Of a stretch of 64,000 bases of DNA, positions 9,178 through 57,171 are shown in pieces (the first letter of the stretch is position 1; each line of letters opens with the position of its first letter). The translations under genes were made by a program, and so were the position numbers. Origin of the DNA: Candidatus Nomurabacteria bacterium. Lineage in GTDB: Bacteria > Patescibacteriota > Saccharimonadia > Saccharimonadales > HK-STAS-PATE-42. The stretch covers positions 612,368 to 676,367 of the forward strand of contig CP060233.1 of assembly GCA_023898665.1 (NCBI GenBank), in the 5' to 3' direction. Under the pieces are notes generated by a model, which did no database searches, had not been told where the DNA came from, and saw nothing but the letters and a program-made list of their open reading frames with translations.

Positions 9178-9252
9178 GCGGGTGTGGTATAATGGCTATT
9201 ATTCCTGCCTTCCAAGCAGGCGATGAGAGTTCGATTCTCTCCACCCGCACCA
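9178..9252 (+). tRNA. tRNA-Gly (anticodon UCC), CCA encoded
   Basis: Hand fold: acceptor GCGGGTG/CACCCGC, anticodon arm CCTGC-CTTCCAA-GCAGG, T arm GAGAG-TTCGATT-CTCTC, 3' ACCA. Confidence 0.9.
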
Positions 9253-30710: not shown

Positions 30711-32717
30711 TTAAGCACTAATATTATTGCCAATATCTTCCAAAGATTTAACATTTAAGCTTGCGGAACCGACCAATAGCCCGTTAAATCCTAATTTTAG
30801 AATCTGCCTTGCATTATCAGGAGTAACACTTCCACCATATAATATTTTGTTAACAGACCTTTGATCACTTAAAAAATCTTTGATTGACTTAAGTTGATTG
30901 AGTAAAAACTCACCTGAGGGCACCTTACCAGTTCCAATAGAAAAAACTGGTTCGTAAGCTACTATTATTAAGTCAGTTTGCTGCGAGTTAAGATTATCAA
31001 AAACACTTTTGAGTTGTTTATATACTTCGCGTTGATGGTTTAGTTCATCTTTGCTTTTGCCTCCAACACATAAAATTACCTTTAAATTATTATCTATGGC
31101 TTTTATTACTTTTTCAAAAACTATTTGATCATCTTCTTCGTGTTTGATTCTTCTCTCGCTGTGACCGATAATCGTACCTTCTGCTAGATTTTTTATTTGA
31201 GTAGCTGCGATTTCTCCTGTATCTGAGCCTTCGTCTTCGTGAGAAATATTTTGTGAGTAGAGGTCCGGTTTTCTCTTTAAATTAGAGCTTTCAATTATAT
31301 GTCTAAACTCCCCGAGAGAGATGTTAGAAGGAGCTACACAAAGCTTAATATTAGAATTAACTAAACTCTCTGATGTAATAAATTGCTGAAACCACTCTAC
31401 TGACTCCTCTAAACTAAAGTGTGATTTAAGGTTAGCAATTAAGGTGGGAGAATTACCCGACAACTTTACAATTCGATCGTTCTCATCAGTATTGTAAGTA
31501 TTTTCTTGTGAAAATTCATTATCAAACTGATCCGGTGAGGTTTCTAGTGCTTTTATACCAGGTAATTCTTCCCCACTTAGCATTAATAAACTTGCACCTC
31601 CCCCAGTAGATAAATGATCAATTAGCTCTAAGGCCTGTTGATTTAAGTTATCTTTAACGAAATCTACAGTATCCCCTCCACCAATGATTATTTTTAGATC
31701 TCTATTTTTTTTTGACTCTATTAAATAATCTAAGATACTTTTAGATCCTTTAGAAAATGGAGGTTTTTCGGCAAAGCCAAGAGTTCCTGCCCAAAGAATA
31801 ACCTCTGCATTATCAATTTCTTCTCTGTATTTATCAATTGTACTTTGTCCAATATCTAGAATCATCTGGTCAGGTTTTATATTTGTGTCATCAAATTCAT
31901 GAGCGAGTAGTTCATCAGGAGATTTTGCACAAATGTAATCCTCCGGTAGTAGTATCTTAGTTTCTGTATACTCTGATTTATTGGCAATCTGATTAGCTAA
32001 ACTTAAACAGTTATCATCAAATAAACTCGCGGCTATATTCTTTTCTAAAGCTTTTAAAAATGTATTTGCTACCACTCCTCCTGTAAGTACAGAATCTGCT
32101 GTGTTTAGAAAATTTGATATAACAGGCAGTTTGCTCTCGACTTTAGCTCCTCCAACTAACAGAACTAAATTAGTTTCTTCTATATTTTGGAGTGATGAAA
32201 TTTCTTTTTGGAGTAAGAATCCAGCTGCAGACGGAAGAACTTTGGGTAACTTTGTGATACTGGCGTGATCGCGGTGGATTGCACCAAAGGCATCTTGAAC
32301 AAAAAATTCAGCACCTGTTACTTTAACTAAGTTCATGGCGAACTCAAGGTCAGAAGCCTCTTCTTCTGGCCAGAATCTTAGGTTCTCAATCAAAAATATA
32401 CCTTTTTGTTTTTCTAATCCTTCATTTGTATCAAAGGGGTCTGAGATAAACTTAACTTTTTTGTTTAGTTGATCACTAAGTATACCTGTAAGATACTTAA
32501 GTGATAGCTTTTGGTTAACCTTACCTTCAGGGCTACCTAAATGAGATGTAATAAAAATAGTAGCTCCGGATTCTTTAAGATATTCAATTGTTGGAAGTGA
32601 TGATTCTAGGCGAAAAAAGTCAGTAAACTCACCTCTATTATTTTGTGGTAAATTTAAATCGCATCTTAGTATTATTCGACTTTTTGCTGTAATATCAACT
32701 TGCTGAACTAAATTCAT
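30711..32717 (-). CDS. pgk/tpiA: fused phosphoglycerate kinase / triosephosphate isomerase
   Basis: The N-terminal ~400 aa is PGK (RCDLNLP, IIGGGDTVDF, STGGGASL). The C-terminal ~250 aa is TIM (IIGHSERR, VAYEPVFSIGTG, LYGGSV). I place the start at ATG 32717 (MNLVQQVD), one base after the pyk stop codon, whereas the track start at 32756 overlaps pyk. Confidence 0.9.
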   Translation of the reverse strand: MNLVQQVDITAKSRIILRCDLNLPQNNRGEFTDFFRLESSLPTIEYLKESGATIFITSHLGSPEGKVNQKLSLKYLTGILSDQLNKKVKFISDPFDTNEGLEKQKGIFLIENLRFWPEEEASDLEFAMNLVKVTGAEFFVQDAFGAIHRDHASITKLPKVLPSAAGFLLQKEISSLQNIEETNLVLLVGGAKVESKLPVISNFLNTADSVLTGGVVANTFLKALEKNIAASLFDDNCLSLANQIANKSEYTETKILLPEDYICAKSPDELLAHEFDDTNIKPDQMILDIGQSTIDKYREEIDNAEVILWAGTLGFAEKPPFSKGSKSILDYLIESKKNRDLKIIIGGGDTVDFVKDNLNQQALELIDHLSTGGGASLLMLSGEELPGIKALETSPDQFDNEFSQENTYNTDENDRIVKLSGNSPTLIANLKSHFSLEESVEWFQQFITSESLVNSNIKLCVAPSNISLGEFRHIIESSNLKRKPDLYSQNISHEDEGSDTGEIAATQIKNLAEGTIIGHSERRIKHEEDDQIVFEKVIKAIDNNLKVILCVGGKSKDELNHQREVYKQLKSVFDNLNSQQTDLIIVAYEPVFSIGTGKVPSGEFLLNQLKSIKDFLSDQRSVNKILYGGSVTPDNARQILKLGFNGLLVGSASLNVKSLEDIGNNISA

Positions 32718-51953: not shown

Positions 51954-52029
51954 GCGGGTGTAGCTCAGCTGTTAGAGCGCTTCCTTGCCAAGGAAGAGGT
52001 CCCGGGTTAGAGTCCCGGTACCCGCACCA
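51954..52029 (+). tRNA. tRNA-Gly (anticodon GCC), CCA encoded
   Basis: Hand fold: acceptor GCGGGTG/TACCCGC, D arm GCTC-AGCTGTTA-GAGC, anticodon arm CTTCC-TTGCCAA-GGAAG, T arm CCGGG-TTAGAGT-CCCGG. Confidence 0.85.
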
Positions 52030-52048
52030 ATATAGATTTTCAAACATT

Positions 52049-52072
52049 AGAGACCAAACGGTCTCTTTTTGT
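52049..52072 (+). terminator. intrinsic terminator after the tRNA pair
   Basis: AGAGACC-AAAC-GGTCTCT followed by TTTTTGTTT. Confidence 0.6.
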
Positions 52073-52091
52073 TTGAAGTAAATCTAAGTCC

Positions 52092-52535
52092 TTAAATCCA
52101 GTCAAAAAATCTATATGACCAATCTCTAAATCCACTCACACCTGGATTGTCACCATCATACTCTAGCTCAACATATTCTTGCGGCACATATTTATAACCA
52201 TGTTCGTCTAGAAGCTCTAAAATTATGGAGCGCAGTGACTTATCTAATCCATCTTCAGTCTCAAAAAGACATACCATATTTCCGTAGCTGCTAAACTTCA
52301 ACCATGCGTATGGGTTATAAAAATATACCTGTGAATGGAAACTGGCATCCTGTACTTCTCCTCCAGTATCGGTATTAAACTCTTGCCCTGTCTTTTCCTC
52401 TAGATCTTTCACGTACAACTTGAACTTCGCTACAGCAGCGCTTCTGTCAAAACCGTTAGGCTCTTCTGTACCACCTAATAATTCCATATCGTGAAAAAGT
52501 TGAATAGCTTCTTCATTGTTCTGAACCGTACTCAT
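52092..52535 (-). CDS. hypothetical acidic protein (island gene)
   Basis: 147 aa uninterrupted ORF with no motif I recognise. Confidence 0.45.
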   Translation of the reverse strand: MSTVQNNEEAIQLFHDMELLGGTEEPNGFDRSAAVAKFKLYVKDLEEKTGQEFNTDTGGEVQDASFHSQVYFYNPYAWLKFSSYGNMVCLFETEDGLDKSLRSIILELLDEHGYKYVPQEYVELEYDGDNPGVSGFRDWSYRFFDWI

Positions 52536-52575
52536 GAGTGTTATTATATCCTCCTCGTCTTAGGGCAGCAACGAT

Positions 52576-52720
52576 TTAGATCAAATCAGCAGATAGATTA
52601 AACACCTTCGCCAGATTTATTAACTTTTGATTATCAAATTGTTCAATTGCAGATGTTTGAAATACGTCAACTATCCTGCACCAATTTATTGCATAACAGT
52701 ATAAACTTGCACCTTTTTCG
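52576..52720 (-). pseudogene. remnant of an XRE-family helix-turn-helix gene
   Basis: The C-terminal part DVFQTSAIEQFDNQKLINLAKVFNLSADLI looks like the second half of a Cro/C1 HTH domain. The N-terminal half of the track ORF (MCFPVLPFCQLCFHSS...) does not look like protein. Confidence 0.3.
52677..52706. repeat. repeat R1, copy a
   Basis: TGCACCAATTTATTGCATAA (52677-52696) is identical to 55627-55646. The next ~10 nt are also similar (cagTATAAAC versus taTATAAAC). Confidence 0.8.
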
Positions 52721-52744
52721 GGTGGATTTTCTGCTATTGAGGAG

Positions 52745-53478
52745 TGAAAACAGAGCTGGCAAAATGGAAGGACTGGGAAACACATTTGTGGTGGTTCTGG
52801 GCCACTTTCGCCTACAGAACAGGAGGTTTATCAACCTCTGTCGTGGTTACGGTGAAAAGCCTGCTGACGGTCTTCTTGTCGCAACACAATCAATTCTAGT
52901 GCTGTGAGAACGCAATACTGAATACTGATGGTTCGCCAGCCGAGATGTGCGGCAATGGGCTACGGTGTCTTGCAAAGTTTGCCAGGGCCTGAAGGACTTG
53001 TTAATAAAGCTAGTTTTGTTGTTCAGACTGATGCGGGACAATTGAGGTTCGCTGCGATGATAGCGACGAAGAATCTGGTCGAGGCGCAGGCTGGCAAAGT
53101 AGCAGTTTCTGATAAGCCGATAAATATCCACGTGTGAGAAGTTTCACTGCAAATGTTGGCAACCCACATGCGGTGACGTTTGTGGATGACTTAGAGTCAG
53201 CGCTAGTTACAACTTCGACCTAAGGTTGAAGTAGATAACTTCCCAAATAAGACGAATGTTGAGTTTTGTCCAAGTGTTGACCAGAACAATATCATCCAGA
53301 ACATGGAACGAGGATGGTGAAACACTGCTTGTGGTACAGGCATGACAGCTGCCTCAGCTGTATTCGTTGAATAGGTCATGGTGAGTACCACGGTGGAAGT
53401 TCGTGAGGCAGGGCTAAGCTCTGGGTTGATGAAAATGGCTTTACACGGATGCGTTAGGTCCAGCAACATTTAGCTAGT
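52745..53478 (+). pseudogene. dapF: diaminopimelate epimerase pseudogene
   Basis: DapF hallmarks are spread over different frames with stops: KMEGLGNTFVVV (GNDF box), [22 protein letters not shown] (first catalytic Cys) near 52927-52992, NVGNPHAVTFVDDLES near 53153-53200, ERGW*NTACGTGMTAASAV (second catalytic Cys) near 53305-53350, and GPATFS* at the end. One sampled line is about 52 % G+C. Confidence 0.75.
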
Positions 53479-53526
53479 AGATAACCTTGTTTATATCTAC
53501 TCGGCTCTTTCCGATGTCGTGTATCG

Positions 53527-53583
53527 TAAAACTACCGCCCTCAATCACCCACACAAAAAGTTTAAGTACATTCTGTAGAGTTA
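53527..53583. repeat. repeat R2, copy a
   Basis: A 57-nt segment about 80 % identical (hand alignment) to 56498-56554. On the minus strand it reads TLQNVLKLFVWVIEGGSF... Confidence 0.75.
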
Positions 53584-53604
53584 CACCAGTCTGCTTATGC
53601 TTAT

Positions 53605-54162
53605 TTATCTGAGGCCCAGGGGTCTTTTTTTATATTCAGGATCAATATCTACTCTTACTTTGCCGTCATCATCCGAGCTAGTAGTAACCCGCTTGAAGCC
53701 ATGCTTCTCATAGTAGTGAACTGCCCTTTTGTTACTTTCGAATACTCCTCCCCAGAGAATAATTCTTTCCTTGCCAAACTTTTTAGCAACGTCTTTGATG
53801 ATTGGCATTAACTTTCCTCCTAGACCAAGGTCCTGATACTTATCAGAAAGAGTTATACCAAACCTACAATCTCTTTCTTCGGTTAACTCGTACCCAGCTT
53901 CTTTAAATCGTGTTAAATCTCCTCCTGGAAGACCAAAACTAAACTCAAGAAGTCCTACGGTCTCTTGGTCCGATTCTACCACTAGTCTTAGTTTGTCATA
54001 TTTATTTATGGCATCGCACAGCTCCTTTGCCATCACTTCGTCATAAGTATCAAAAGTACTGAATTCTCTAGTATCACTAGAAAGGTTGGCTAAGAACTCT
54101 CCTAGCATCTCAATATCTTCATTGACCAAGGGTCTTACTGCCAATGCTGGACCATCGATCAA
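53605..54162 (-). CDS. GNAT family N-acetyltransferase
   Basis: 185 aa. Motif A YQDLGLGGKLM and motif B NKRAVHYYEKHGFKRV. Confidence 0.8.
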   Translation of the reverse strand: MIDGPALAVRPLVNEDIEMLGEFLANLSSDTREFSTFDTYDEVMAKELCDAINKYDKLRLVVESDQETVGLLEFSFGLPGGDLTRFKEAGYELTEERDCRFGITLSDKYQDLGLGGKLMPIIKDVAKKFGKERIILWGGVFESNKRAVHYYEKHGFKRVTTSSDDDGKVRVDIDPEYKKRPLGLR

Positions 54163-54261
54163 TTCTACTTCGTAGTTTACTTGTGAAGGATCTTCAAAGA
54201 TGGAATTTAGGGTTATTATTAATAAGATATTAACACAGGGGTCTGTTATGATAATCCTTAT

Positions 54262-54978
54262 ATGTCGCTTACTAAAGTAAAGAAACTCCTAGAATACTAT
54301 GAAGGTGGAGCTATCCCAGTATTGTCTCAACATGAAGTCCATCCTGATGTACCAATCGATAGCCGAGAAAATTATTTGTATTTTACGTTACCGGTTTGCA
54401 TAAACTTTCAACGTAATTCACCAGCCATGTGGGCAGCAGCCTTAAAGACTTGGGAAGATGAGTCCACTAGATACTTATTCTTTCCTGAGAAGTTAGCTGT
54501 CACGCCAATTGAAAAAGTAAGAGATGACCTTTTGAAGCATCGTCTGGGGTTGCAGCCCAATAAACACGTCCTAATATGGACCACTATCGCTCGAACACTT
54601 CATGAACATTACAATGATGATCCACGAGACATACTAAAGGAAGCAGAAGGAGATGCTGGTAAGCTAATCGAACTATTACAAGTTACTCATAAGAAGCGCT
54701 TTCCGTACTTGAGTGGACCAAAACTTTCAAACTATTGGCCGTATATATTATCCCAATATACAGATGTAGAGCTTTCTAGCCCACAAGAGATATCGATAAT
54801 CCCAGACACGCACGTTTTGCAGGGAAGTGTCGTTCTAGGGATAGTTGCGCCAGGCGCGAACTCTAAACAGGTTGAGGCTACCTGGAAAGAATTGTTAAAA
54901 GATACGGCGATTAATCCTTCTCGGGTTCACCCAGCATTATGGAACTGGAGTAGGAACAAGTTCGAGCCTAAGGTTTAG
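54262..54978 (+). CDS. hypothetical protein (possible HhH-type fold)
   Basis: 238 aa. FPYLSGPKLSNYWPYIL is faintly reminiscent of HhH-GPD glycosylase hairpins. That is weak evidence. Confidence 0.4.
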   Translation: MSLTKVKKLLEYYEGGAIPVLSQHEVHPDVPIDSRENYLYFTLPVCINFQRNSPAMWAAALKTWEDESTRYLFFPEKLAVTPIEKVRDDLLKHRLGLQPNKHVLIWTTIARTLHEHYNDDPRDILKEAEGDAGKLIELLQVTHKKRFPYLSGPKLSNYWPYILSQYTDVELSSPQEISIIPDTHVLQGSVVLGIVAPGANSKQVEATWKELLKDTAINPSRVHPALWNWSRNKFEPKV

Positions 54979-55481
54979 GCTAATATCTTGTTATAAAACT
55001 CATACTTAGCGGCTTGGTATTCCCTGAAAGGCTTGCCGTTTGCATCTGACTTTAGCTTTTCGTATTCATCTTTTAATTCACTATTATTCTTGAGCAGTTC
55101 GAATACTCTTATCTGCTCAGCCATGGAAGGAGTAGAAGGGTCAGTTAGATAAAGCTCTACCTCAACACCCTCTCTTTCAAACATCCACTCAACGTTATCT
55201 TCGTGTTTATGGGTTGGTTCTCCAAATAACTCTATCAGTCTATCTAGATACATATTGAAGTCTTCTTTAGGATGGAGCATATACATGTCTAAGTCACCCT
55301 GACCAGATATACCAAGTCCAGTAGCCCCCATTAGCCTTATGTCTATATCTTCGGAGATGGCTTTGATGGCAGAGATTATCTGATCTGCTACTCTTTGTAA
55401 CTCTTCAGTATAAGGTTTGATATGGACCAACCTGTCTTCTGGGATAGTCTTTAAATAGTTAGCTTGTGGTTTGGTTAACAT
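54975..55481 (-). CDS. nucleotidyltransferase-fold protein (GrpB-like)
   Basis: 168 aa. MGATGLGISGQGDLDMYML fits the hG[GS]...D.D NTase motif, and the C-terminal REYQAAKYEFYNKIL resembles GrpB family ends. Confidence 0.5.
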   Translation of the reverse strand: MLTKPQANYLKTIPEDRLVHIKPYTEELQRVADQIISAIKAISEDIDIRLMGATGLGISGQGDLDMYMLHPKEDFNMYLDRLIELFGEPTHKHEDNVEWMFEREGVEVELYLTDPSTPSMAEQIRVFELLKNNSELKDEYEKLKSDANGKPFREYQAAKYEFYNKILA

Positions 55482-55490
55482 AACTAAATC

Positions 55491-55634
55491 TTAGCATAGG
55501 GATCTGTTATGTATGTAAGTCTCTACACTCCCCTTATTAATTAAGTACTCCCTGTAGGGTACAGCTAGGAGTATTCTCCATAAAGCCATTTCTTCTCTGA
55601 TCTCGTGTAAAAATAATGAGTAGTATTGCACCAA
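55491..55634 (-). CDS. possible small XRE-like HTH ORF or remnant upstream of the NTase gene
   Basis: 47 aa from a TTG/GTG start: VQYYSLFLHEIREEMALWRILLAVPYREYLINKGSVETYIHNRSLC. It loosely resembles the IREE.g.s...LA ... yi..iE.G pattern. It ends 10 nt before the NTase ATG, and its 5' end lies inside repeat R1b. Confidence 0.2.
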   Translation of the reverse strand: MVQYYSLFLHEIREEMALWRILLAVPYREYLINKGSVETYIHNRSLC

Positions 55635-55655
55635 TTTATTGCATAATATATAAAC
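55627..55655. repeat. repeat R1, copy b (promoter-like)
   Basis: It has the same 20-mer as 52677-52696. On the + strand it reads TTGCAC (55626-55631), 17 nt, then TATAAA (55649-55654), 47 nt upstream of ATG 55701. Confidence 0.8.
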
Positions 55656-55700
55656 GCCTTCCGAGGTGTTTTTTTACCGCCTTAGTGGTATTATCAACTT

Positions 55701-56435
55701 ATGATGAGCGGAAGAGCAGAAGTACCTGAAGCAGCAGTAGCGGATCTAAGATCAGTTGGATTCCCTTTGCTTGATGAGGTTGATGGAGATAAGCTGGTCA
55801 GAATTACAAACCACCCACATGGCAGAGAGGGAATTATTGAAGCTAGGCATTTTATGCCTATGGGCTACGATCTCTCTGACGTGCAGCTTGCAATGAGACA
55901 GAGCAATAGAGACTTTACTGATAGCGAACATTTCAAAGGCGTGGTCTCAAGCTACCTAGGACCACACGCAATGAGACTAAGTTCTTCTATATTCAGCGAG
56001 CTAATTCTTAGAGCGGGGATTGATCGTTCTGCAAGAACTGCAGTTACTGCAGTGCGCATAGTACTAGACCAAGAGGAAGCGGGACATTTAGAGGCTGCCG
56101 TTTGGGAAGATGGCGAAAAGTATGATGATCCGCAAGCCATGATCGAAGCTTTATCTACAGATAGGTACAGAATACTCGGTGAACCGATAGGTAGGAGAGA
56201 CCGGGAAGTAGCTCCCGACTATAGTGGACCTATGGTCGTGCATGCAGTGACCACGGCAGTACAGGGACTTGGCGGCACTCTGAGTCTAATGAGTAAAGGC
56301 TTAAGGGTAGATGTGTGGTTTGACGCAGAAGCAGAAGAATTTAAGTTCGTGGCCGCAGAAGAATGCGCGGTTACTGCCGGCAACTTGATTACCGTTAAAT
56401 TTCCCAACCACAGTGAAGTCCCTCAGCCTGCTTAA
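55701..56435 (+). CDS. hypothetical protein, GC-rich island cargo
   Basis: 244 aa uninterrupted ORF rich in Ala, Arg, Glu and Val. No motif recognised. Its composition is clearly more GC-rich than the core genes. Confidence 0.5.
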   Translation: MMSGRAEVPEAAVADLRSVGFPLLDEVDGDKLVRITNHPHGREGIIEARHFMPMGYDLSDVQLAMRQSNRDFTDSEHFKGVVSSYLGPHAMRLSSSIFSELILRAGIDRSARTAVTAVRIVLDQEEAGHLEAAVWEDGEKYDDPQAMIEALSTDRYRILGEPIGRRDREVAPDYSGPMVVHAVTTAVQGLGGTLSLMSKGLRVDVWFDAEAEEFKFVAAEECAVTAGNLITVKFPNHSEVPQPA

Positions 56436-56497
56436 GCAAGCATCTTAATAGATAATATTCTGGATAATTGTATATTTGCTTTTTGAATTTGGCACTA

Positions 56498-56554
56498 TAA
56501 AACTACCACCTTGAATAACCCATACAACAAGTTTAAGTATATTTTGTAGAGTTA
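56498..56554. repeat. repeat R2, copy b
   Basis: Homologous to 53527-53583. The minus strand reads ITLQNILKLVVWVIQGGSFIVPNSKSKYTIIQNIIY* with its stop at 56445-56447 and no start codon upstream. Confidence 0.75.
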
Positions 56555-56643
56555 TAGATATTGTATCGAATACTGTTAAACGACTTCTATTACTTTTCTG
56601 TTAGTATTAACTCTAGTTAGGTTATTAAGCTAGAAAGGTTTTT

Positions 56644-57024
56644 ATGTCTAAGTATGTTGATGGTTTCGTATTAGTTGTCCCTAAAGATAAAAGAAAAGAG
56701 TATAAGAAGATGGCAGAGGAAGGTCGAGAATCTTGGATGAAGCATGGGGCTCTCCACTATTTTGAGTGTATTGGCGATGATTTGGGACAGCAAGAGATGG
56801 GTACAGAAAAATCACGCTCTTTTAAAGAAATGGCAGGAGCTGGAGACGATGATGACGTATGGTTTTCTTTTATCGTTTTTGAATCAAAGGCACAAAGAGA
56901 TGAGATAAATAAAAAAGTATTGGCCGAGATGGATGAAGCCTACAAAGTTAAGAGTGATTTTGTAAGCCCTTTTGAGATGAGTAAAATGGCCTATGGTGGA
57001 TTTGAGAGTGCAGTTGAAGGGTAG
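56644..57024 (+). CDS. DUF1428 family protein
   Basis: 126 aa. MSKYVDGFVLVVPKDKRKEYKKMAEEGRESWMKHGALHYFECIGDDL matches the DUF1428 N-terminal pattern as I remember it. Confidence 0.7.
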   Translation: MSKYVDGFVLVVPKDKRKEYKKMAEEGRESWMKHGALHYFECIGDDLGQQEMGTEKSRSFKEMAGAGDDDDVWFSFIVFESKAQRDEINKKVLAEMDEAYKVKSDFVSPFEMSKMAYGGFESAVEG

Positions 57025-57171
57025 GCGTTATAAATAACAATCTAAGTGTATGATAAGTTCATAAGAATACATGTTAAAGGAGATGATTTATGAAAAGCGA
57101 AAAAATATCCTGTTAAGTTTAATATTGACTATCCAGTTCAATTAGATAGATTTACAACCTTCTTTAGAATA

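Follow-up and report, generated by a model that had tools for sequence, protein, structure and literature searches.

The described system closest to the locus reported here is the stack of genomic islands at the ssrA gene of Dehalococcoides (ssrA-GIs), read together with the concept of island accretion and cis-mobilizable elements (CIMEs). In the ssrA-GIs, the serine recombinase DsiB (~540 aa) is encoded on the reverse strand next to the left attachment site (attL) at ssrA. The stacked islands are separated by repeats of the target 3′ end, and segments without integration genes have been proposed to be cis-mobilizable (PMC3146451). We analyzed a 64,000-nucleotide stretch of a Candidatus Nomurabacteria genome (contig CP060233.1, positions 612,368 to 676,367; Patescibacteriota, Saccharimonadales), called the window below, in which two units, a and b, each hold one gene between a left repeat, R1, and a right repeat, R2. 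A first-pass annotation had attributed these units to a segmental duplication followed by cargo replacement through recombination in the flanks, with no obvious recombinase. Instead, we find that the flanks are attachment-site junctions of a kind that recurs at the ends of recombinase islands in dozens of genomes, and that two families of large serine recombinase (LSR), termed type 1 and type 2, occupy the same tRNA-Gly gene in sister strains (contigs L011 and L112) and in relatives. The idea of a gene-exchange architecture survives, with the exchange apparently proceeding through site-specific recombination at a tRNA gene.

The locus resembles the ssrA-GIs in having a reverse-strand LSR at the attL of a small-RNA gene and stacked segments, some of which lack a recombinase. 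It differs in its target, which is tRNA-Gly, and in its core, which measures 6-7 nt as opposed to the direct repeat of 20 bp in the ssrA-GIs. The second small recombinase and the six-gene integration module are missing here, and segments can be as short as one gene. Moreover, the crossover falls inside the recombinase open reading frame (ORF), so that each junction carries a fragment of the recombinase tail.

This last property recalls the “suicidal” tyrosine integrases of the SSV1 type from archaeal viruses and plasmids, which carry the attachment site in their own gene, are split on integration into a tRNA gene so that a fragment stays at each end of the element, and occur exclusively in archaea (2021 review, PMC8371274). 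In both cases, the att core lies inside the integrase ORF and the gene is partitioned at the tRNA; in the LSRs, the frame is continuous across the core. Unlike the SSV1-type enzymes, the recombinase here is a bacterial (Patescibacteria) serine recombinase, and only the last ~35 of its ~580 codons are split off. The LSR system is therefore an analogue of the SSV1-type integrases and no member of that group, a bacterial serine-family counterpart of the archaeal self-splitting enzymes.

Integron arrays offer a further comparison, since they too consist mostly of single, unrelated, co-oriented genes with a recurring recombination-site module and one fixed anchor. Unlike integrons, the locus has no IntI and no attC hairpin, a terminator and a promoter come with each unit, the array is anchored at a tRNA 3′ end, and the mobility of its cassettes is a proposal. 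In the integration-dependent immunity of mycobacteriophages that Broussard et al. reportedly described in 2013, attP lies in the 3′ end of the repressor gene, and integration into a tRNA gene truncates the repressor C-terminus. There the truncated gene encodes the repressor and the integrase is a tyrosine enzyme, whereas here the recombinase itself is truncated; by analogy, a regulatory role for LSR truncation is a conjecture.

Accretion of tRNA-anchored islands with recombinase-less segments is a known frame. What is unusual is a recombinase gene split by its own integration, together with units of one or a few genes that carry terminator and promoter modules in a lineage of the candidate phyla radiation (CPR). 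Patescibacteria (CPR) have tiny genomes in which gene gain is poorly understood, and the locus would represent a concrete, recurrent route. Our full-text literature search (Saccharibacteria or Patescibacteria with serine recombinase, tRNA and genomic island) found no description of such a system; its coverage was incomplete, and an earlier description is possible.

Recombinase tails in the flanks of two gene units

The R1 20-mer, TGCACCAATTTATTGCATAA, occurs exactly twice in the window, at 52677 and 55627 (20/20 nt), and the 64 kb hold no other copy with up to 3 mismatches (0.02 expected by chance). Both copies continue into a TATAAAC tail, and blastn aligns them at 93% identity over 30 nt. 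The 57-nt R2 block is present at 53527 and 56498 as annotated, at a measured identity of 86% in place of the ~80% first given, and its similarity extends beyond the block over all 35 codons to the stop (~110 nt). A sensitive nhmmer search found no third copy of either repeat in the window. The units share the same order and a near-equal spacing from R1 start to R2 start (850 versus 871 nt). Because the intervals between the flanks have no DNA or protein similarity, and the whole R1-R2 interval is thus not homologous between units, simple duplication does not explain them. The architecture of flank, cargo and flank is repeated as first described, around unrelated genes of higher GC content than the flanks (46-48% versus 27-36%): dapF in unit a (52764..53477, plus strand) and a 244-aa ORF in unit b (55701..56435, plus strand). 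R2 is indeed coding on the minus strand, as five of the eight differences between its copies are synonymous and both stop at the same aligned codon.

The peptide encoded by R2 belongs to the C-terminus of type-1 LSRs. R2a (53474..53588, minus strand; GV-TLQNVLKLFVWVIEGGSFTIHDIGKSRVDINKVIY up to the stop) and R2b (56445..56559, minus strand; SI-TLQNILKLVVWVIQGGSFIVPNSKSKYTIIQNIIY up to the stop) are both found by a profile made from the tails of other genomes alone, with E = 3.8e-9 and E = 8.6e-7, respectively. In ~35 Saccharibacteria loci, TGGTGC(G/A) is followed in the same frame (GGT-GCN) by a tail of the form GA-(E/T)LQNLLKLF…IIY, 1-10 kb upstream of an LSR gene and on the same strand; these tails always end at the stop, and a terminator-like hairpin of the chromosomal flank precedes them. 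The same arrangement of LSR and tail is found at a tRNA-Pro gene in at least one locus (L087). In unsplit fossil ORFs (P0122, P0124, P0129 and P0147), one frame runs from the LSR C-terminus through the core into the tail; in P0124 it reads …NDFVRGAMEQNLLKLFEALIDNQ…NIIY. Across 30 tails, the final codons, ~100 nt from the core, are essentially invariant at positions 1 and 2 and vary at position 3, a pattern that reads as purifying selection on the tail. Judged by these alignments, R2 is an orphaned C-terminal LSR fragment of ~35 codons that marks the distal (attR) end of an island. The crossover core, likewise, maps inside the LSR ORF, ~37 codons before its stop, where integration splits the gene.

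A word-indexed protein search with three 43-aa R2 peptides gave no match, and the homology surfaced only through genomic context. Other readings of R2 were rejected along the way. As structured DNA or RNA, or as an attC site, it folds no better than shuffled sequences and has no Rfam match. A plus-strand frame (KTT.LN.P..KFKYIL and stop) was dropped because a third copy of R2 in sister strains and 30 homologs fix the minus frame. We also discarded the possibility that R2 supplies the missing end of a short LSR, P0001 (WC frame), which is cut off at codon 339: P0001 is a deletion variant, and in normal members, of 545-560 aa, the GA frame continues through the core.

R1 joins a second recombinase tail to a core and a terminator/promoter module. 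In its 20-mer, the tRNA-end core is followed by the first 13 nt of a spacer: R1a (52677..52706, plus strand) holds the core GCACCA at 52678-52683 and the conserved spacer ATTTATTGCATAA…TATAAAC, and R1b (55627..55655, plus strand) holds the core at 55628-55633 and the same conserved spacer. To the left of R1a, a minus-strand segment (52576..52683; WC-RIVDVFQTSAIEQFDNQKLINLAKVFNLSADLI up to the stop) had been annotated as an XRE-like remnant. It has no helix-turn-helix match in Pfam (E <= 0.01), and its peptide, WCRIVDVFQTSAIEQFDNQKLINLAKVFNLSADLI up to the stop, is homologous to the stretch that comes after the same W-C (TGGTGC) codons within a 116-aa ORF of contig L026 and to the tails in L047 and L021 (E 1e-11 to 1e-28). 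By these matches, the sequence left of R1a is a type-2 LSR tail. The corresponding assignment left of R1b (55515..55633, minus strand) is weaker: the decayed relic there keeps the WC…F.T spacing and is homologous over ~110 nt to the left flank of an R1 copy in contig L098. By manual count, the tails left of R1a and R1b are ~39% identical.

Downstream of the core, each R1 module runs through spacer, hairpin, T-run and extended −10 box, with the cargo start codon shortly after. In R1a, the terminator-like hairpin, T-run and box (TGCTATTAT in the error-free copy in contig L001) span 52710..52745 on the plus strand. In R1b (55654..55694, plus strand), the hairpin at 55654-55669 folds with −9.3 kcal/mol (z = −2.95) and is followed by a T-run at 55670-55676 and the box TGGTATTAT at 55686-55694, which ends 6 nt before the ATG of the 244-aa ORF, a start at 55701 that is predicted to be leaderless. 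We read this −10 box by eye; a consensus scan did not call it. The short hairpin and T-run reported earlier are thus present in both copies, and a promoter facing the cargo is likewise predicted, past the hairpin and T-run rather than as TTGCAC-17-TATAAA inside R1. The motif TTATTGCATAAT was tried as a genome-wide promoter motif and found to be unenriched (22 found versus 16 expected).

A metagenome scan turned up one more R1 (20/20) in L098, an unrelated contig. The hairpin recurs there with base changes, the −10 box is the same, and another gene lies downstream; the flank to the left, though heavily decayed, still shows the WC…F.T spacing of a type-2 tail. Further copies, absent from the rest of the window, thus exist elsewhere: R1 in L098, and R2-like tails in ~35 loci. 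The exact 20-mer has no match in 185,579 species genomes, among which the source genome evidently has no representative. Comparing R1a, R1b and L098, the most conserved bases are the core and the adjacent 13 nt, rather than the hairpin or the −10 box. Because these bases are perfect in all three copies and the adjacent tails have widely diverged, the comparison suggests that core plus 13 nt is a recombinase half-site still in use.

Two minor points concern R1. A hint from contig L020 that R1 might be a decayed tRNA-Gly 3′ end was not borne out for R1a, whose left side is clearly a type-2 tail arm; in L020 itself, such an origin is possible. Separately, Logan contig L001 (SRR12358676) starts at exactly the first base of R1a, window position 52677. 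This would be expected if the assembly graph branches there, and hints at an alternative left context in that sample.

Recombinase islands at tRNA-Gly in sister strains and relatives

Directly upstream of the array lie a tRNA-Phe gene and the tRNA-Gly(GCC) gene (51954..52029, plus strand; identified by ARAGORN and Rfam). In contigs L011-L014, from the same species, the match to the window runs leftwards from dapF and breaks off at 52023, within the tRNA-Gly 3′ end. From there they carry an island, c, of at least 7 kb, with EamA, GNAT, methyltransferase and Macro-domain genes and an LSR gene. The insertion point of island c is exactly the tRNA-Gly 3′ end (junction CGCACCA), and the window represents its empty site. 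A third R2 copy, R2c, abuts CGCACCA at the right end of the island, and its minus-strand peptide (TEKNLLKLFEWLVENETYSAPVLEKATLGTDKIIY up to the stop) aligns codon for codon with R2a and R2b. Past the tRNA core, the window continues with a spacer, a hairpin at 52049-52066 and a T-run (52030..52075, plus strand, from a terminator scan), and this sequence reappears in L011 after R2c and CGCACCA. In the alignment, this flank (T0) amounts to the empty site for island c, and island c is a presence/absence polymorphism. We conclude from these comparisons that the LSR islands use the tRNA-Gly 3′ end, GCACCA at 52024-52029, as their chromosomal attachment site (attB core).

The LSR family is common in Patescibacteria, and our scan of species genomes found 80 loci, nearly all in Saccharibacteria. 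LSR homologs carry the resolvase catalytic, recombinase and zinc ribbon domains (PF00239, PF07508 and PF13408), with visible CxxC…YYYKCxxxxC motifs. The genes encode 545-560 aa, run convergently with a tRNA gene and overlap its 3′ end. The target is tRNA-Gly(GCC) in 26 genomes and in the closest clade, and tRNA-Pro, tRNA-Leu or tRNA-Val in other clades. At the tRNA junction, the LSR reads …YKLNEPWxGFVxxNDFVR-GA through the core and then meets a stop within the antisense tRNA. A common core is found at both attL and attR in ~30 loci. Type 2 has a full-length representative in L112, a same-species contig whose RuvA is identical to that of the window; this LSR ends …SYILNDPFKTIVETKKKALSGSNSDI-WC, fused to the antisense tRNA-Gly at the same W-C codons. 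The tRNA-Gly gene is a hotspot served by two LSR families, where foreign genes such as dapF, acetyltransferases and a dehydrogenase (L098) are stacked. The islands of relatives L015 and L020 carry MmeI-type restriction, KAP NTPase and TatD genes.

Arrays in other genomes follow the same junction plan as the window: a tail, (C/T)(C/T)GCACCA, a spacer and a terminator-like hairpin, often with an extended −10 box. L026 has three type-1 tails ~0.6 kb apart, and two of the units between them each consist of one small gene preceded by a homologous flank module. In L101, four tails are of type 1 and one is of type 2, and L098 reads R2, core, dehydrogenase, type-2 relic and R1 (20/20). Flank families repeat within arrays, as in units u2/u3 of L026 and a/c of L101. 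In L021, L047, L101 and L026, a tail and core directly border a different LSR gene at its 3′ end, and such hybrid junctions show that tandem integration beside a resident island takes place.

Several further features of these islands deserve mention. In L015, the nearest relative with a sequence (68% identity in RuvA, 89% in Xth), P0001 (10001-11101) is a type-1 LSR cut at codon 339, between the zinc-ribbon cysteine pairs, and fused to the tRNA-Gly core; it reads as a deletion anchored at the core. Genes for an MmeI-type restriction enzyme, a helicase and T5orf172 also lie on the L015 island. At LSR 3′ ends (L018 11595-11640; L112 ~840-880), an inverted repeat encodes the last codons (NEPWxGF, or KKKALSG in type 2) and on the tRNA strand reads as spacer, hairpin and T-run. 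The integrated LSR gene thus seems to supply a replacement terminator for tRNA-Gly, a sequence with a double role. Finally, a conserved element of ~100 nt with a long hairpin (TTATTGCATAATAT…AACAGGGGTGGGCGAAAAT…CCCCTGTT; L026 7100-7204, with similar copies at L064 ~6551, L074 ~8418 and L075 ~5106) lies inside the LSR islands of several genomes. It has no Rfam match and could be a small RNA or regulatory element.

A probable accretion array and its alternatives

From the tRNA outwards, the array consists of core and T0; the 147-aa ORF; a type-2 tail, core and the R1a module; dapF; R2a with its core, decayed to ACACCA at 53583-53588, and a terminator (53589..53635, plus strand; spacer, terminator-like hairpin at 53611-53626 and T7 run); genes for a GNAT acetyltransferase, a 238-aa ORF and GrpB; a decayed type-2 tail, core and the R1b module; the 244-aa ORF; and R2b with its core, decayed to ATAGAT. 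The DUF1428 gene (56644..57024, plus strand; Pfam match) forms the right boundary. Four att-type junctions in the window and a fifth in the sister strains, all in direct orientation, lie between tRNA-Gly and DUF1428. Because homologs of the DUF1428 gene (69% amino acid identity) sit directly past the distal LSR-island junction in L018 and L047 as well, the whole of 52030-56559 appears to be accreted DNA, and the units lie between successive junctions, as the aligned tails and cores place them. We therefore favor, at a probability of roughly 0.8, the reading that integrative segments came in at the tRNA-Gly(GCC) 3′ end through LSRs and built up 52030-56559 as an accretion array.

As the sequence comparisons show, integration leaves the LSR body against the tRNA (attL) and carries the last ~35 codons to the far end (attR). 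R2a and R2b are orphaned type-1 tails (…LQN[VIL]LKLF…IIY and stop), each followed by a decayed core. R1a, and with weaker resemblance R1b, is a junction of the second LSR family, formed by a type-2 tail (WC-xIVDVFQT…NLI and stop), an intact core and the spacer/terminator/T-run/−10 module, whose predicted extended −10 promoter would drive the next gene. Each unit has a flank module on its left, a type-1 tail on its right and one foreign gene, dapF or the 244-aa ORF, in between. We infer that the units are either recombinase-less elements or site-specific deletion derivatives of full islands. Because conserved end modules flank unrelated cargo, unit boundaries fall at the core, and the R1 core with its next 13 nt is perfectly conserved, they may have been placed or mobilized in trans by LSRs like those of the sister strains, as cis-mobilizable elements in tandem arrays.

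A number of observations weigh against this reading. There is no LSR gene anywhere in the 64-kb window, and nothing there is self-mobile. The cores beside R2a and R2b are mutated (ACACCA and ATAGAT), so these junctions are probably dead. Among contigs of the same species, we saw neither a circular junction nor alternative occupancy of units a and b; both unit positions hold the same cargo throughout, and the context of unit b is identical in 13 contigs. In island c, the LSR (L011 7836-8570) has two in-frame stops, one falling on the W that is conserved in …LIAWHPDRL… and the other two codons past DR, and is either a pseudogene or affected by assembly errors, with a single contig covering this stretch. 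Homologs of the R2-encoded C-terminus were found as LSR tails and unsplit fossil ORFs; an unsplit full-length LSR, as in a free circular form, did not appear among 1.84 billion representative proteins, which yielded only N-truncated fossils, and a viral collection yielded only two integrated copies. Exact matches to the R1 19-mer were few in the JGI metagenome scan, namely the two copies of the window locus (L097 and L100), L098 and one chance hit. The similarity of the left side of R1b to a type-2 tail is weak, and a profile of 26 type-1 LSR 3′ ends misses both R1a and R1b, so that the R1 flank is not detectably a degenerate type-1 LSR 3′ end. The flank module of R1 could be the native downstream flank of a tRNA or the left arm of a recombinase-less element.

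It is unlikely that the units are the decayed distal ends of serially integrated LSR islands, shaped by ordinary deletion, with R1 kept only as a terminator and promoter. Tandem integration is real, as the hybrid junctions in L021, L047, L101 and L026 attest, an LSR truncation anchored at the core exists in L015, and terminator and −10 motifs are present; yet random deletions would not stop at the core each time. Such decay also leaves unexplained why the same flank module precedes three different cargos (R1a, R1b and L098) and why flank families repeat within arrays (L026 u2/u3 and L101 a/c). Moreover, R1 conservation peaks at the core plus 13 nt, rather than at the hairpin or −10 box.

We consider it highly improbable that an R1-gene-R2 unit was duplicated and its cargo later swapped by homologous recombination in the flanks, without a dedicated recombinase. 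This history predicts that R1/R2 units exist as local paralogs only, unlinked to tRNA or LSR genes, and we found the opposite, since both flanks are end junctions of LSR islands in many unrelated genomes. Two copies with the same order, similar spacing and unrelated interiors would suit it, and homologous exchange or gene conversion could act on the identical 20-mer, although flanks of 20-57 nt are very short for RecA-dependent exchange and R1-adjacent tails with ~39% identity do not fit a recent duplication. The start of L001 at the first base of R1a, with its hint of an alternative left context, would also be in keeping with swapping. Short conserved ends around single co-oriented genes bring integron cassettes to mind as well. 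The chance that R1 and R2 are the ends of another mobile element (integron attC sites, or termini of miniature inverted-repeat or insertion sequence elements) or a structured RNA is nevertheless negligible: neither strand of R2 folds significantly (z = +0.3 to +1.7), R2 is protein-coding, no terminal inverted repeats link R1 with R2, Rfam gives no match, and the associated enzyme is a serine recombinase rather than IntI.

Beyond the accretion array, we tentatively put forward a broader scheme that is possible but rather doubtful at present. Patescibacteria might possess an LSR-based, integron-like form of gene capture, in which units of one or a few genes with composite tail-GCACCA-terminator/promoter sites are stacked at tRNA-Gly. 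The C-terminal ~35 codons of the LSR would be exchanged in each recombination, such that integration truncates the enzyme and the tail of a neighbor rebuilds or alters it. If true, such a “suicidal” serine integrase would limit or regulate itself, as only archaeal tyrosine integrases have so far been reported to do. The splitting of the LSR also suggests, as a testable idea, control of directionality without a separate factor. On the practical side, insertion junctions, old and new, can be mapped with the LSR tail fragment as a simple sequence marker, and compact LSRs with a defined tRNA-end target are of interest as integration tools.

Cargo genes and neighboring features

The dapF gene of unit a, previously annotated as a pseudogene, is indel-corrupted in the window and intact elsewhere. 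Six independent assemblies of the locus (L001, L002 and L011-L014) are 100% identical to one another and encode an intact DapF of 243 aa (TIGR00652, 1.7e-65). Relative to them, the window has 27 indels and 10 substitutions, all within 52704-53453, and is otherwise identical over more than 5 kb. The breakage of dapF is, on this comparison, almost certainly due to an unpolished long-read patch in the source assembly. A homopolymer difference near 57100 (A6 versus A8, about 57099-57104), which shortens a DUF4389 gene to 184 aa from 212 aa, looks like an error of the same type. At 53474-53477, the dapF stop overlaps the stop of the antisense LSR tail (CTAG), and a similar overlap occurs at ~5651-5654 in L026 (TTAA). 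The cargo is packed exactly against the end of the full-length tail, which is never truncated.

The remaining cargo consists of the 147-aa ORF in the first segment (52092..52535, minus strand) and, in the middle segment (53605..55481), the genes for the GNAT acetyltransferase (minus strand), the 238-aa ORF (plus strand) and GrpB (minus strand). The 147-, 238- and 244-aa ORFs have no match in Pfam, NCBIfam or the PDB. A second glycine tRNA gene, tRNA-Gly(TCC) at 9178-9252, has the same CCCGCACCA end and might serve as a secondary target, although its surroundings showed no tail relic. Lastly, the motif CAYAGGGRTCTGWTAT occurs at 54234-54249 and 55495-55510 and at ~2410-2440 in L011, with weaker matches at 32432 and 42400 (count 4 versus 0.2 expected by chance). 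It lies just 5′ of plus-strand gene starts, those of the 238-aa ORF in the window and of EamA in L011, and may be a promoter-associated or regulator-binding motif.

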